Positions 1 through 6,945 of a DNA stretch of 64,000 nt are shown here, piece by piece; the stretch's first letter is position 1; each line of letters starts with the position of its first letter. Below the pieces are notes generated by a model. That model searched no databases and was not told the DNA's origin. It worked only from the letters and a program-made list of their open reading frames with translations. The stretch is from Mayamaea pseudoterrestris (lineage: Eukaryota). The stretch is from positions 992,001 through 1,056,000 of the forward strand of contig BROI01000005.1 of the NCBI GenBank assembly GCA_027923505.1, read 5' to 3'. Position numbers and translations under genes: made by a program.

Positions 1-1014
1 CACAATGACCGTGTTAGCTATGTGGCTTCACTTCCGTAGTATGCTCTCAAATTGCCTTTGATTACCACGCAATTAGTGCAATATCCAGCCTCTCCTTTGG
101 TCCATATAGACAAGAAATGTTGGCATCAACCATCAAATTGTTGCTGTGAGAGAGAGTGTCAACAATACTGTCTTTGTTTGACAGTGTTTGTGCGCGCGAA
201 GCGCGCAAAATCTTTGCAGGCTTTGTGAAACCATTGATCCTACCACCTCCCCACCCCGCGAATGTGTTTGACCTCCACAAAAACAAATTGCTTGTAGGAG
301 TAATAGTTTTAGATCGTAAGCAAATTTCGACAATATAGTATGGGAGCTGACTGGACAGAGATATTTATTTCACAAACCATTGTCAGTGACTGTTAGCTGC
401 CTCCCTGCTCCATGTCGCTAGCAGTGTAATCACCGATCATATCAAAAAGCAGCTAGACCATCGACGCTGGAAATCGACTCTCATATCGACTGCGACGCAA
501 GAAGTAGCATTGTCTCGCCCGATGAAGAGAAGCTAGCTTCGCCACAGCCGTGAGGGAAGTGTGCGTTTACATCAAGCTATGGTACGCCGCTGTTGCCATG
601 CTACCTTCCTCAATTTCGTTGCCATTTCTAGAACGGTTGATTATGATAAGGCTGATGTGGTTATTATGACTACCCCTACCCCTTCACTTATGCACGGCCC
701 GAAATTCGGAGTTTCCATAGTCGTTTCTACCGATGATGTCCTCTTGTGCCCGCGACTTTAGTGATGGAGCCTCGTTAGTTACTTCATGTGTCATGGTGTG
801 CTTCCCGTGATGAAGTATCGAGAGATACATTGAGAGCATCAGGCAGGCTTGGGCTTCGTCGATGCCGCGCAACGCGCGACTGTGCAGCCCATGCTGTCGG
901 GCACACGCAGCCGACGTTACCGTAAGCGAAAGACGACGTTGCACGAAAGTCAAAATATTTGGCTAAATCTAATTTACCTTATACCCTCAATAAACAATCT
1001 ACTAGTAGATGAAA

Positions 1015-1503
1015 TCACTTTCGACTCAATGAATCCTGCAGGAAGTTAATTCCTCGATTCCACGTCTTTCGGAGCGAAGTGCTAGAGCCTTCAAACTAAA
1101 CAAGTGGGGGTTAAGAGATGAAACGAATCTCGGAAATGAGAGATGTTGAAGACAGGTAAAACAATCGCAGTTTCGTATATGTATACAGTAGACGACACGC
1201 CACCCTCGCCAGCCGCCAGCCCAAGTGTCTCTCACTTACATTCTTCTCTTGTGTTTGTGCTCCGGCGGAAGGTCTCATTGATTCGTACTGCGCCTCGAGA
1301 GACTCTGTAGCAAAGCAAAATAAAGCACAAGAATTAGTTATATTCAGACAGTTGATAAGTCAAGAGGCTCATTATGTGTTCGCACCTCGTAACTTCCATT
1401 TCCACGAGAGCCGTTCTCGGTATGATAACTGCTGATGAACAAGAAGAAAGGACGTGCCAGCAAATGCAACGCCTACAAAGAGGGATGGCATGTGAATAGC
1501 CAT
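1015..1503 (-). CDS. Small single-TM protein, MICOS Mic12/QIL1(MIC13)-like, 3 exons (1503-1386, 1304-1240, 1095-1015), 87 aa
   Basis: GT..AG splicing (GTGCGA..CTACAG; GTAAGT..GTTTAG) joins one frame: MAIHMPSLFVGVAFAGTSFLLVHQQLSYRERLSWKWKLRESLEAQYESMRPSAGAQTQEKNFEGSSTSLRKTWNRGINFLQDSLSRK*. It has an N-terminal Gly-containing hydrophobic helix and a C-terminal 'WN' motif. Confidence 0.6.
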
Positions 1504-1705
1504 TGAATTACTGAACGATAGATGAATAGACAAGTTGTAAAGCTGGCGATGATCGACCAACGCGTCGTGGTCGAAGTCGAAATCGATGGAACGCGATTGC
1601 AACATCGTACCGGTATCAACATTCATTTTCAGTGCCGCTTTCTCACTGTCATTTTTATTGGCGCGCCAACTGCGGTATCTTGCGGCGGATGGTTTTTCTT
1701 TGATA

Positions 1706-1769
1706 CTACGAATTCGAGAACAATTGACACGTCAACGGCTTTTCAATGACGCTCAAAGGAGTCTCAAGG
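1706..1769 (+). repeat. Left terminal inverted repeat, 64 bp
   Basis: CTACGAATTCGAGAACAATTGACACGTCAACGGCTTTTCAATGACGCTCAAAGGAGTCTCAAGG, the exact reverse complement of 5399-5462. Confidence 0.97.
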
Positions 1770-2154
1770 CTTCGCCAACCAATCTCGTTGAGCGTCAAAA
1801 AACAGTTTCGCCGCCATCACCATGGCGGAGCATCGTCTTTAACTATATTTAACAACCATTACCTCGGTTTTTAGAGCGTAAGTAGAGCAATTAGAGCAAG
1901 ACGAATCCATCTGTGCTATTTGTTTTGACGCGGCGCATCAGGAATGCTCCCGATCAGTGCGTCATGATTCGTCGTCGCAGCATGCAGCTTGACGCCTCCG
2001 CCATCACCATCAAGCATCGATACATTTGATGTTTAAATTTCCTTTCAAATGCCTCACTTGTCATTTTTGTTATTCTTTTGAACAGGAATGGTTTGCTTGA
2101 AGGAAAGCTTTAAATTTGATACAACCGCCATCAAGCCGCCACTACAACACCATC

Positions 2155-3284
2155 ATGCCTCGTGCTGATCCTGCCGACATTGTCGCACGCGAGCGCTCGG
2201 CTGCTGGCTTAGCGCGGCAACTTGGAGCTCTTCGTCAAGCGCCTCCTCATCCTTCACGTGGTGGTTCCACTGGCTATCCAGTCTCACAGCGGGAGCAAGA
2301 GCTGGCTCGTGAGCAGCAAGGGCTTCCAGTCGCCATGTCGCGCAGCACAATGTATCGGTACCGAGTCAATGGAGTCAATCCAAAGAGAGCAACCGGAAAT
2401 AGGCAGAGAGAAGTTTTGGTTGGACTTTCGCAAATTGCATTGGCCATCATTTTGTTTGCACATCCAGAAGCCAGTGTTGATCAAATTGCAACGTTCATTT
2501 ACGCCAACACTGGCGAAGTTGTCTCCCGCTCTCAAGTGTCAGAACGCATGGCAGAGCTCCAGATTTCAAAAAAGAAAGCATCTACAGAAGCATACCAAGC
2601 ATTTACCCCAGTCAATATGCTTCGGGCGACATGGTTTTGGAGTCAGCCACCACCACTTGGTGTAGTGACGGTGCGGCGCAATCAATTCATTGATTTTGAC
2701 GAGTGTGCGTTCAACCTTGAGAAACAAACCGTTCCACAGGACATTCAGCCGTTGGTGTTCGCATCCGCAAGCCAGGACACTACAGCAGAGACCAGAAGAT
2801 TACTTTGCTCATGGCAATTGAGCCTGGTGACCCAGCGTTGCCTCCCAATGTAGCTGGAAGCGTCGACAATCCTCGCCGTTGGTTTCGGACGTACATGGAT
2901 CCAGGGACAACAGCAGAACGATTTGCAGACTTTTGCAACATTGTCTGTACTACTTGTGAGAATAGCGGCCTGCCTGTGGATGGAGATCGGGTTTTATTGT
3001 GGGATAATCTGGCTTCTCATGGTGCTGGCATTGTTTACCAAACAGTAGTGGGCCGCGCGCTTCCTCAACGCTTTCGAATCATACCTAGACCACCCTATCA
3101 GCCCAAATATGGTCCAATTGAGTATGCCTTTTGTATGATTGGTGTTCAGCTTCGAGAAATGTCTCGCCAGCACTGGACAGTGCAGCATCTTGAGCAAGCA
3201 ATTCACCAAGTATGCGCTGCCATTGGTCGCAGTGGCGGCTTTGATCGAACGTTTGCGCATTGCGGATACCAAGTTTTAAACTAA
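2155..3284 (+). pseudogene. IS630/Tc1-like DD38E transposase interrupted by a -1 frameshift at about 2721-2728 (376 aa if one base is restored)
   Basis: N-terminal HTH-like region (SRSTMYRY...VSRSQVSERM), first Asp motif IDFDE, then in the -1 frame LLWDNLASH and PPYQPKYGPIEY with 38 residues between D and E. Confidence 0.88.
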
Positions 3285-3485
3285 CAGAACTATTTTGATT
3301 TGTAAATAGATACTGTATTATATAAAGTAGGAGCTGGTGCGTCTATCTTAATGGCCAATGCTGATGCACGACTCGGGTGTAGCACGCACCTCAGCTCCAC
3401 GTTCTGCAAGTCTTCAAGACGATTCAAGCGCCTCCAGTGGCTTGTGAACGTGGTCTACTGTAGAGAAATCTCTTCTTTGAAAGTC

Positions 3486-5304
3486 CTAGCTGAATCGAGT
3501 GGCAAGGACATGGATGCGCTTCTTCAGCTTCTCTTCGTCTGCTTGCATCATTGCTAGGCTTCCCAGCTTGGAGCAAATGGAATTCGTATCGCGGAAGCGA
3601 GGATGATCTTGCGAAAAGAGACTGTCACAGAAAACACCATGGCCTTTGTCTTCAAAACCATCCGCTGACATGATGTCAAGCAGCAAGCCAAGGATGAGTT
3701 CCTTCTTCTGCTCAAGCTCTGGGTCGGAGGCTTGCTTCAACGGTGTACTCTCGCGCAAATGCGCTGGGCTGTTCTCAAGTGGAGACACTCGAAGCAAGTT
3801 ATTGCGTGAAACTCGGTTGCCGGTTGCTGCATTGGGAGGGACCGTAATGCCTGCTCGCTTGTTGGATGAGCTGGTGGCAAATGACATGTTGCGCTTTGTG
3901 GCAATGTCATTTTCACCAGCATTTGTTGCTGCGAGTCGCTTGTTCTTGCGGATCTGATCAATTGAGAACCCTCCATGATAAGTAGTAAGAGCACCAGTTG
4001 CTTCTTGTGCAGCCAAGCGTAGCTGCATATTTCCTTGGAGGAGAGGGTCATGGAGAAGGTTGACGGCTGTCATGCTGCAAATGTCTGGAAACAACGCTTG
4101 CGAATCTGCGCATAGATTTCCATCCACAACCTCTCGCGCAGAGCATGCAAACACATCTCGTACAGTAGAGCAAAAATCAACGGTTGGGCCTGTAGTTAAC
4201 AAGTAGATCATGTGAGTCTGTGAGTTGCGCGTATGGATGGCAAGCATGACAAGAATCCATGAACGTACGTTGGAACGAATCACCTTCACGCGCTGACAGT
4301 GCCATTTCCGCAATCTTACGATGATCAGCTGAATAGTATCCAGCGCAACAAGTTGACTTGCAAATACTGCAGCTACAATCCATGCCAAGGGGACCTTGGA
4401 CCAGTGGCCGCTGCATACCTGCATCCATCAAAGCCTTGCACGCGTAGCAGCTGCATTCGCTTGATCCGCAATGGAGCGAGTATGAAAAGCAAACTAGTCG
4501 CTGCGAGTAAGTCTTTCCGCATCTTGGCTTCTTGTTTGGGTTTGCGCCAGTTCCTTGCCAGTCAGCCAAAGCTTGCTTGTGCGTTGCGAGAGTGCGCTCG
4601 TTCCGTTCCTGGACTTGGCTTGGCGTGTCAAATGCGTTGATCGTCTTCTGTCCACAAACAGCGCACGCCTCTCGTGTCACTGCTTCCAAAGAATCAAAGA
4701 CCATGGAGTCTTGGACGCGCTTTCCATTCTTGTCGAGGATTTTGTAGGATGCAAGGGATTTGGGTTGCGCAGTTGACAAATGGTTGCGATGTGATTCCAG
4801 TTTGATGATTGCGCTGCGAAGGGAAGCAATGGCACTTGATGGCTTGCTGCTGCGACGAGTAGCCACAGAGTCCTCCATTTTAAAACATTCCTTGCTCTGT
4901 TCATCAAAGAGGTGGAGCTGAATGATGGTGCCGGCGCATTCGTCAGCCTTCCACTGCTTCAAGCGCGATTCTGGTTCGACAAGGATGGCATGCAAAAGTT
5001 TTGTGAGAGGCTGATCTGGACCAAGTAATGAAGCATGGAAGTCTGCCTTCTTCTCAATTTGGCGCTTCTTGAAGAGTTTGATGATCTGAAGCTTGTCAGT
5101 CCGGCTCAGAGGCTTGCGAGAGGTGGCGATGGGCAAGAGCGGCGACTCGTTCCAGGACGTGACGGTGACAGCATTGGTGTCGGCTACCAGCTCAATTTCA
5201 TCTGCCGCGAGACTTCCTTCATCATCTACATCCATTACTTCCATGTCAGAAGAGATTAGTAGTGACGCAACAGGGCTATCAATGTTAATAGGTGAGCTAT
5301 TCAT
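3486..5304 (-). CDS. Transposon-borne uncharacterised Cys-rich (putative multi-zinc) protein, 2 exons (5304-4269, 4189-3486), 579 aa
   Basis: ORFs 4177-5304 and 3486-4424 join in frame across a 79-nt GTACGT...CTACAG intron (4268-4190). Cys cluster CAVC...CFSYSLHCGSSECSCYAC...CSCSICKSTCC. Lies wholly inside the TIRs. Confidence 0.8.
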
Positions 5305-5398
5305 TGTTACGGCAGGGCAGCCATGGTGACGTGACGAGGCGAGGAAATGTGCGGCATCGCGTCGCCGCGCGCAGGCTCAATGAATTCCGCTGGGACTC

Positions 5399-5462
5399 CC
5401 TTGAGACTCCTTTGAGCGTCATTGAAAAGCCGTTGACGTGTCAATTGTTCTCGAATTCGTAG
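5399..5462 (-). repeat. Right terminal inverted repeat, 64 bp
   Basis: Exact reverse complement of 1706-1769, followed by TA at 5463-5464. Confidence 0.97.
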
Positions 5463-6112
5463 TATTATATTCTGTCGTTGGCTGTAGATTGTGACCAGGC
5501 GATGATGATTTAAACGCATCTGTGAGAACGCCTGTTAGATCCTTTGTGGTCTCATGTTGCAGAGAAATGACGATGATGCAAGGTGTGCAGTGCAGTACGC
5601 TCGGGTGAACCTTAAAATTGAAAGACATCATTTACTAGTATTCCGATTTGATGTTGCCTCGTCGCTCGTCACCGTCGCGTACAGTTGTACAGCATGGGTT
5701 CCGACAAAGGAACAAGCATACACACACATACTGAGTATTAAAGATAGTGTTTGCTTTGCATATACTGGAAAAACTCGCAGGCAAATCGGTCCGTCGACGA
5801 GCACCGAGATAAAATCACTTCCTCGGGATATGCCACTTGACAAAGTGTGCATTGGTATGATACTTTGAATGTATTTTGGACGTTAAAGGTCGCAAGTCAC
5901 TGTCATCGGCAGATGCGCGATGCGCCGACCCACCCTCGCTGACAATCAACTGACTTTGAGGGCAACCATCAACCAACGATCAACTTTTTGCTGCTCCAAT
6001 AACCTATATAAACAACTCATTGGTTCTAACAAATTAATCGAGAAACAATGGTGATATAGCGCTTAGTAAATGTTAGCATCGACTCAAGTTACTCCTGCAT
6101 TCGCAGAACCTC

Positions 6113-6945
6113 TCAAAACATGCCCAAACTCTTCATACTCGGGGCAGCATCAGGTGGTTGCACGCAGTACTGCTCCTCCGACCTCAGGCAGCTCGCAGCA
6201 CTTTCAATCGCATTAATGATTGCCAAGTCAATTCCATTGTCGCGCACATAGGAGAGTGTTCCGAATTTGCCCTGGAGTCTTGTCCAAAAGACATTTGGCA
6301 GGTTAAGCTTGACGCCATCGCCAACGTTAAAGTTGAGCACATTGCCCTTTCCACCAAACTGGTCCACGACAAGAACGATGTACTTGTCGTCCTTTTGTCC
6401 CTCCTTGCCAAGGTCCCAGTAGTCACGGCTGTTGGAAAAAAGCAGAGATGTTAGCCAAGGAGGTTTACACTTCCATGTGTGACAAAAGGTACGTTTTGAT
6501 CGTATCTCCAATGATATCGCGCATTGACTCACATTGCCAGTCCAGGTGTGATTGGGTATGCCTGGCACAATACACGTAGACGAAATCCTGTGTCTCTCTC
6601 CAATGCAGTTAATAGGTCGTTCATACGTTTCGCTTGGCCCGAAGTGAGAAACTTCTCAACTTGTATGACATTGAGGCCAGATTCCTTGGGCAGCAAGTCG
6701 GGCCGGTTGACGCTTTCCAATCGTGCTGAAGCAGACAGTGGCATTAGCGTCGTTGCTATCGCAGCAGTAACAAAAAATACGCTTTTGGCGAAGAGATTTC
6801 TTCTTTGATAGTCGATTGCAAGTGGAGGTACGGGAGTTGGACTGGAAAATGCATTGACTCGACAACCACTATCGTCCATTGTCGTGGCTAGCAGTAAAAG
6901 AAGTGACGCGCATGCTCTGCGGGATCTATAATTAGTAGTCGTCAT
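6113..6945 (-). CDS. TPM-domain thylakoid lumenal 15-kDa-like protein, plastid targeted, 2 exons (intron 6532-6429)
   Basis: Hydrophobic leader ending VNA-F, RR motif, then NRPDLLP...LERDTGFRLRVLCQAYPITPGLAI|RDYW...LNFNVG...FWTRLQGKFG. Confidence 0.8.

Follow-up and report, generated by a model that had tools for sequence, protein, structure and literature searches.

The 64,000-nt stretch of the Mayamaea pseudoterrestris genome analyzed here (contig BROI01000005.1, positions 992,001 to 1,056,000 of the forward strand; 'the window') carries a 3.76-kb transposon of the IS630/Tc1/mariner (ITm) superfamily with two genes: a transposase and, convergent with it, a second open reading frame (ORF), which we call ORF2. 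ITm transposases are textbook one-protein cut-and-paste systems. The element in the window belongs to a widespread two-gene diatom ITm family, in which the transposase is joined by a new cysteine-rich partner protein; the layout itself is already known in ciliates. We hold the identity of the element, as described, to be nearly certain; that ORF2 is an integral component of the family is only slightly less sure.

A first-pass annotation, made from the letters of the window, had proposed a two-component family, and relatives of the element bore this out. One metagenome scan gave 64 transposase loci (43 groups at 85% nucleotide identity). The window ORF2 matched the opposite-strand ORF of one locus, L027, directly (22% identity, E = 3e-7), and the opposite-strand ORFs of the metagenome loci form one family. 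Using a profile, we saw ORF2 downstream of the transposase, on the minus strand, in 33 of the 47 loci with at least 500 bp of flank and in 25 of the 30 with at least 1 kb; after clustering, the counts were 22 of 31 and 19 of 23 groups, respectively. The loci themselves were not rows of this profile, although the search behind it had started from them; L038 (E = 2e-5) is a weak positive. Among the profiled loci ORF2 was never upstream of the transposase or on the plus strand. Related transposases that never carry the second gene, the finding that would speak for a one-off capture, are thus not what the 23 clusters contain. In a quick transposase tree holding this family only, every deep branch has members with ORF2, and the five rows that lack it are scattered, which reads as loss as far as these sequences go. 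Pairwise identities of the two proteins are strongly correlated (Spearman 0.89 for 18 loci, 148 pairs; 0 of 2,000 permutations as high), as expected if both proteins must fit each other or the same element ends.

ORF2 is under purifying selection and is an ancestral, element-encoded partner. Between the two full-length copies in the genome it has 17 synonymous and 7 non-synonymous differences, a ratio of non-synonymous to synonymous rates (dN/dS) of 0.12 (P = 6e-7); the parts of the transposase have dN/dS of 0.02-0.03. Eight metagenomic ORF2 pairs were compared as well; three diverged ones had dN/dS of 0.18-0.32, and one was saturated, with a strong synonymous excess.

The terminal inverted repeats (TIRs) of the element match at 64 of 64 positions, as the first-pass annotation had stated; the match is 66 bp long if the flanking TA dinucleotides are counted, and looser similarity reaches 91 nt at 88%. 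The span proposed there, 1704..5464, does hold the 3.76-kb element but includes both TA copies, the element proper being 1706-5462 (Table 1). TA|CTACG ends are common to all six elements with both ends visible: the window element, L021, L027, L037, L039 and L059; five of them carry ORF2, the sixth, L039, does not. Each gene is read inward from its TIR, therefore the repeats probably hold both promoters. An ATG within each TIR (1746 and 5422) opens an upstream ORF of 41-42 codons, and a further short ORF per end, in CACCATGG context (1822 and 5324), precedes the main starts; translational damping by these short ORFs is possible.

Table 1. Features of the two-gene element (window coordinates)
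Feature	Position	Strand	Basis
Left TA target-site duplication	1704..1705	+	TA at boundary; 2-bp duplication deduced for the C29 site
Whole element, TIR to TIR, 3,757 bp	1706..5462	no strand	TIR analysis and 96%-identical C29 copy
Left TIR, 64 bp, starting with family terminal motif CTACG	1706..1769	+	Repeat comparison
Putative intron in transposase 5' untranslated leader	1878..2085	+	GT donor/AG acceptor context, kept in diverged C4 relative
Transposase 5' part from ATG: weak helix-turn-helix region, first catalytic D (2698-2700), out-of-frame stop (2851-2853)	2155..2853	+
1-bp deletion (frameshift) relative to intact C29 copy	2722..2723	+	Alignment of copies
Transposase 3' part: second D (3003-3005), E (3120-3122), DD38E, DDE_3 domain	2724..3284	+
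ORF2 exon 2 to stop codon, conserved C-terminal motifs	3486..4189	-
ORF2 intron, 79 nt, GT-AG	4190..4268	-	Joint in X4
ORF2 exon 1, codons 1-345: acidic N-terminus, conserved helical-looking region, Cys cluster	4269..5304	-
ORF2 Cys/His cluster C214-C319, putative modular zinc-binding domain	4348..4665	-
Right TIR, 64 bp	5399..5462	-	Repeat comparison
Right TA target-site duplication	5463..5464	+	Repeat comparison

Judging by its sequence, the transposase is of an IS630-like lineage of ITm rather than of Tc1/mariner proper; the IS630/Tc1/mariner label given earlier thus holds at the level of the superfamily (DDE_3 domain, TIRs, TA) and not for its Tc1/mariner branch. DDE_3 scored above the Pfam cut-off in the query (P0002) and was matched in all 55 aligned homologs. 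All 55 also matched the NCBIfam IS630 model NF033545, if weakly; the query score of 59.6 bits (E = 3e-16) is below the curated cut-off of 100, by which it counts as IS630-like and not as a member of the family. The best plasmid matches were IS630 transposases (23-34% identity, E = 2e-4); the closest solved structures were mariner domains (E about 3e-5). The catalytic triad is kept in 53 of the 55 homologs, and 41 of the 55 share the spacing of 38 residues between the second D and the E. A helix-turn-helix (HTH) match, HTH_33, was weak (E = 0.002, below cut-off), with HTH families found in 1-4 of the 55 members each. Among 8,000 candidates scored, 130 proteins, mostly 35-57% identical, passed a threshold of E = 1e-10. 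The named hosts of relatives are diatoms (Thalassiosira exigua, Skeletonema marinoi), and the lineage is apparently diatom-borne; exact-peptide-pattern scans, which can miss relatives, confirmed none in viral contigs or GTDB genomes.

As annotated at first, a DDE transposase does lie on the plus strand, with D, D and E in DD38E spacing, but its ORF is broken: the 1-bp deletion shifts the frame after about codon 189 and splits the triad between two frames. The copy on contig C29 encodes an intact 376-aa transposase; the window copy, as its sequence reads, is unable to make the full protein from its own frame. We compared read contigs of four runs (X1-X4; no more than three samples, from two studies) with positions 900-6700 of the window; X1 may be the source of the assembly itself. 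X1 and X4 contigs carried the frameshifted allele, and X2 had the intact one. Since these X1 and X4 contigs come from short reads, the frameshift is unlikely to be a long-read error. Programmed frameshifting was rejected: the sister copy is in frame, and breaks in relatives are at scattered positions.

The second spliced gene, said earlier to fill about half of the element on the minus strand, was confirmed; it encodes 579 aa and spans ∼48% of the element. A database entry with exactly this protein sequence is named a hypothetical protein of M. pseudoterrestris. Contigs of X4 join the ORF2 intron and three host introns, therefore ORF2 is probably transcribed and spliced; no RNA run is on record for the stretch, and X4 is regarded as RNA solely from these four CT..AC intron joints. 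Relatives of ORF2 were recovered by a full hidden Markov model (HMM) scan only, with 775 cluster representatives (50% identity) at E ≤0.001 and 377 at 1e-10; single-sequence and profile word-index searches returned ORF2 itself alone. Looking up 20 of the relatives gave a single taxon name, a Bacillariaceae genome.

The core of the protein is a cluster of 12 cysteines and one histidine. All 13 ligand positions are held by 37 of the 70 rows covering the cluster; C214, C217, C272 and C319 are nearly constant. The six inner cysteines are missing as a block in five rows, while four rows, the window copy (10 of 13 positions kept) among them, lack H219, C274 and C317 together. Such co-losses suggest, at the level of the alignment, that the cluster may consist of three separable metal modules; the tests of co-loss ignore relatedness, but the H219/C274/C317 trio is lost on distant branches. 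Net positive charge was found in 14 of the 16 members of at least 500 aa. In 107 members no consistent Pfam or NCBIfam match was seen, the best being generic zinc-ribbon models in 3-4 of them. Sequence searches of PDB gave at best an unrelated helical protein (E = 0.048); PHROGs gave nothing consistent and Atlas no usable match. The queries used found no host homolog outside the two elements. Other identities considered for ORF2 found no support at the sequence level: CXC (Tesmin/TSO1), with an hhalign probability of 1.5% against one host CXC region and no TCR match in the 107 members; Fanzor/TnpB, with no TnpB or RuvC match in these members and no Rfam match for the element; and a kinase or tyrosine recombinase, neither domain being present among the 107.

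ORF2 probably works for the element, in one way or another, at the element's own DNA. The role that we favor, if with somewhat less than even confidence, is that of a cofactor or helper of transposition, because of two precedents: mudrB, apparently required for integration (PMC6446971), and Harbinger ORF1, which binds both TIRs and transposase (PMC2836001). The element itself is a low-copy cut-and-paste transposon; in the IS630-like DD38E diatom family to which it belongs, two genes are the standard. The transposase would bind the TIRs, excise the element and insert it at TA with duplication, the chemistry being that of the ITm superfamily; ORF2 would be a nuclear zinc-stabilised protein raising transposition via the element ends or the transposase, as mudrB and Harbinger ORF1 do. 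The window copy, transposase-null and ORF2-intact, can presumably move only in trans, e.g. with the help of the intact C29 copy.

Several observations weigh against a helper of this kind. Unlike that of Harbinger, the transposase here shows a weak HTH signal and therefore may need no DNA-binding partner; for ORF2, family and structure-sequence searches gave no domain assignment. Two different sites (L039 and L074) carry a 1.58-kb form that has the transposase as its single gene, followed directly by the right TIR; therefore ORF2 is not needed in cis, though the L039 transposase has two stops. No ORF2 was detectable in four of the 23 clusters. With mean identities of 52% for the transposase and 26% for ORF2, the latter diverges twice as fast, a pattern that fits an arms race equally well, and co-divergence would follow from physical linkage alone. 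Finally, the four near-identical metagenomic ORF2 pairs had dN/dS of 2.1, 1.07, 2.4 and 0.28, none significant; the missing purifying signal would be expected there because copies decay after insertion.

Close behind the cofactor stands the possibility, itself rather doubtful, that ORF2 is an anti-silencing or transcription factor which, like VANC, would bind family motifs and block methylation or switch on the TIR promoters, with no part in cutting and joining. The fast divergence of ORF2 and its absence from L039 and L074 suit this role. Furthermore, DNMT5-based DNA methylation silences young transposons in a diatom (PMC9998398), and VANC acts via short tandem motifs (PMC6719617); family-specific short repeats are present near the ends of L027, L037, L038, L039 and L059. 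However, L039 is a single-gene element, and the window element has no 7-mer repeated three times in its terminal 260 bp. Nor did the 107 ORF2 members show similarity to chromatin reader or eraser domains, and the CpG observed/expected ratio of the element (0.89) is only slightly below that of the rest of the window (1.09).

Less likely still, ORF2 could serve the element otherwise: by choosing target sites, by guiding how the donor gap is repaired, or as cargo that favours its carriers through addiction or a benefit to the host. Strict linkage and selection tell nothing of which step is served, and low copy number (two full copies found) with wide spread would suit a cargo that pays for itself; on the other hand, ORF2 had no match to enzyme or toxin families, no further small gene resembling an antidote is evident inside the element, and the queries used turned up no host homolog beyond the two elements. 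A captured host gene carried as passive passenger or one-off is very improbable and already largely refuted, since the intron of ORF2 and the elements that lack it or have internal deletions must be set against its presence throughout the deep branches of the transposase tree (transposase identities down to ∼30%), the purifying selection and the failure of the queries used to find a host source gene.

It is possible, though less likely than not, that mobility of this widespread diatom ITm lineage depends on a second zinc protein without known relatives, be it an obligate subunit in a class of otherwise one-protein transposases or a sequence-specific anti-silencing factor of new fold; if true, this would be the first such ITm system outside ciliates, and in a transformable alga. 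ORF2 as cofactor would change how ITm transpososomes can be built; ORF2 as a block to silencing would add a new kind of counter-defence, one directed at DNMT5-type methylation.

The two-gene layout has its nearest parallels in ciliates, where the extra genes of the described multi-gene ITm exceptions are still unexplained. TBE and Tec elements have multiple ORFs (PMC7325037, PMC4724952), as do all 13 Paramecium ITm families, some of them with ORF2 and transposase alone (PMC3464196, PMC5405496). Thus, Paramecium Anchois, DDE1-3, Sardine and Thon, Oxytricha TBE and Euplotes Tec likewise combine, inside TIRs, an ITm transposase with one or more conserved extra ORFs of unassigned function. The TBE 57-kD ORF has zinc fingers and is under purifying selection, being the least conserved TBE gene (PMC4724952, PMC3464196, PMC5405496). 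The ciliate elements differ from the diatom one in the spacing of the triad (DD32-35E versus DD38E), in telomeric ends and in germline/soma elimination in the host, both absent from the diatom element and its host. The Paramecium ORF2 proteins, compared by eye, have ∼200-260 aa and no cysteine cluster, unlike diatom ORF2; the accessory kinase and tyrosine recombinase of TBE/Tec have no counterpart in the 107 diatom members.

The IS630 family of the ITm superfamily shares with the element a DDE_3 transposase with the D, D, E triad, TIRs and the TA duplication; the diatom element is different in being eukaryotic and spliced, in its second large gene, in TIRs of 64 bp or longer and in an NF033545 score below cut-off. 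Two IS630 copies make up the composite Tn630 (PMC11544213). Intruder (DD38E/IT) has the same DD38E spacing; it is an animal element of 1.5-1.7 kb with a single gene, derived from DD34E/Tc1 (PMC7731502). In contrast, the diatom element has two genes, 3.76 kb and an IS630-like profile; because its transposase is IS630-like, the shared spacing is, on these sequences, most likely convergent.

Outside ITm, MuDR has a convergent, TIR-driven gene layout. MuDR (mudrA/mudrB) and VANDAL (VANC) also resemble the element in pairing a transposase with an accessory gene that aids integration or blocks silencing (PMC6446971, PMC6719617), but the Mutator transposase is of another superfamily, duplications are of 8-11 bp, and no sequence similarity was detected for ORF2. 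PIF/Harbinger, too, moves by cut-and-paste and has two genes, the second of which encodes a partner in transposition (PMC2836001); its 3-bp duplication, its DDE_Tnp_4-type transposase without DNA-binding domain and its Myb-like partner are not present here. A transposase with a second gene of 500-600 aa containing cysteines is also the plan of Fanzor-carrying mariner/IS630 elements. ORF2 differs from Fanzor in that its 3' end faces the interior of the element and not the element end, as well as in the missing RuvC and Rfam matches.

We found no description of this two-gene family in the open-access literature, with subscription papers, Repbase and Dfam lying outside the search; repeat libraries may hold its consensus. 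The main text of the genome paper (PMC9724779) has no mention of mariner or IS630. An early suggestion that the family may be undescribed therefore stands as far as open-access papers go, while the two-gene ITm layout was known from Paramecium. In diatoms, the lineage has kept a selected, co-diverging partner gene over ∼30-90% transposase identity, a new protein family. The question of what ITm accessory genes do becomes testable in transformable diatoms or yeast; a single genome offers two natural copies, one apparently intact and one transposase-null.

A search of the genome with the element yielded a second full-length copy, 96% identical (G000:C29:237681-241451), and one decayed relative (71%) on C4; these copy counts are lower bounds. 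The C4 relative has lost the first catalytic D, and no ORF2 was found within the 9.9 kb examined near it. Some 1.8 kb from this decayed transposase there is a tandem array of ∼168-bp units (G000:C4:646500-650430; L079 1-3930). TIR search of the genome found no miniature inverted-repeat derivatives (MITEs), again a lower bound.

The insertion in the window is polymorphic: heterozygous in one sample and absent from the window site in the run of the other study. An empty allele, seen as a joint skipping the element, was present in X1, X2 and X3. Its depth in X1 was 15.7 versus 37 in the flanks, about half; in X2 it was 166.5, the full flank depth. The empty allele and the heterozygous depth pattern support the recent insertion that had been read from the identical TIRs. 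The empty site predicted at first (TTTGA-TA-TTAT) was recovered in part: an empty allele does exist, but it reads six letters instead of the three predicted. The stretch is AT-rich, and the haplotypes also differ at other places; therefore, the window site alone is no proof of duplication. The predicted TA duplication was upheld by other evidence, namely TA on both sides of all six both-ended elements and the C29 site, where 12 bases (occupied) versus 10 (empty) between the same anchors amount to a 2-bp TA duplication, one side of the comparison coming from a single read-contig loose end.

The C29 empty allele is present in the assembly 2 kb downstream, and its right side matches the loose end behind the TIR in X1 and X3. 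A third genomic insertion, suggested by this loose end, was rejected, since the loose end is the far flank of the C29 copy. In the region of that copy (G000:C29:236768-243480; L080, L083) the left TIR is truncated by 15 bp and adjoins a 759-bp direct duplication of host DNA (91%). Because of the reads and the nearby empty allele, the truncation and the duplication suggest two haplotypes joined in tandem by the assembly.

Beside the window insertion lies a spliced host transcript with a 128-aa ORF (1626-1018, minus strand; introns 1305-1385 and 1096-1239, both joined in X4). Its start is 78 bp from the insertion site, which places the element in the leader or promoter region of this transcript.

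Some metagenome loci depart from the standard form. Internal deletion derivatives make up two of the clusters, and their transposases are broken. Two independent sets of deletion derivatives (L044, L047 and L050; L043, L068 and L077) retain only the 5' and 3' ends of ORF2, without the cysteine cluster; the remaining ends are in frame in L047 and L044. Directly behind the transposase, L020 (991-2082, minus strand) and L072 (400-822, minus strand) have a different conserved ORF, 60% identical between them and with no Pfam match, placed in L020 between the transposase and an ORF2 remnant; it is possibly a nested insertion or a third gene. An ORF2-less cluster (L045 1201-1779 and L078 400-936, both minus strand) has another convergent ORF, which is 78% identical between the two loci, is likewise unmatched in Pfam and may have replaced the partner gene. 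In L018 (30-151 and 3290-3411) the inverted repeat runs into the start of ORF2, the first codons of which are duplicated upstream of the transposase. Around the L027 element lie a second partial TIR and several additional copies of its terminal motif (205-1254 and 4627-4820), which suggests nested or adjacent short derivatives.

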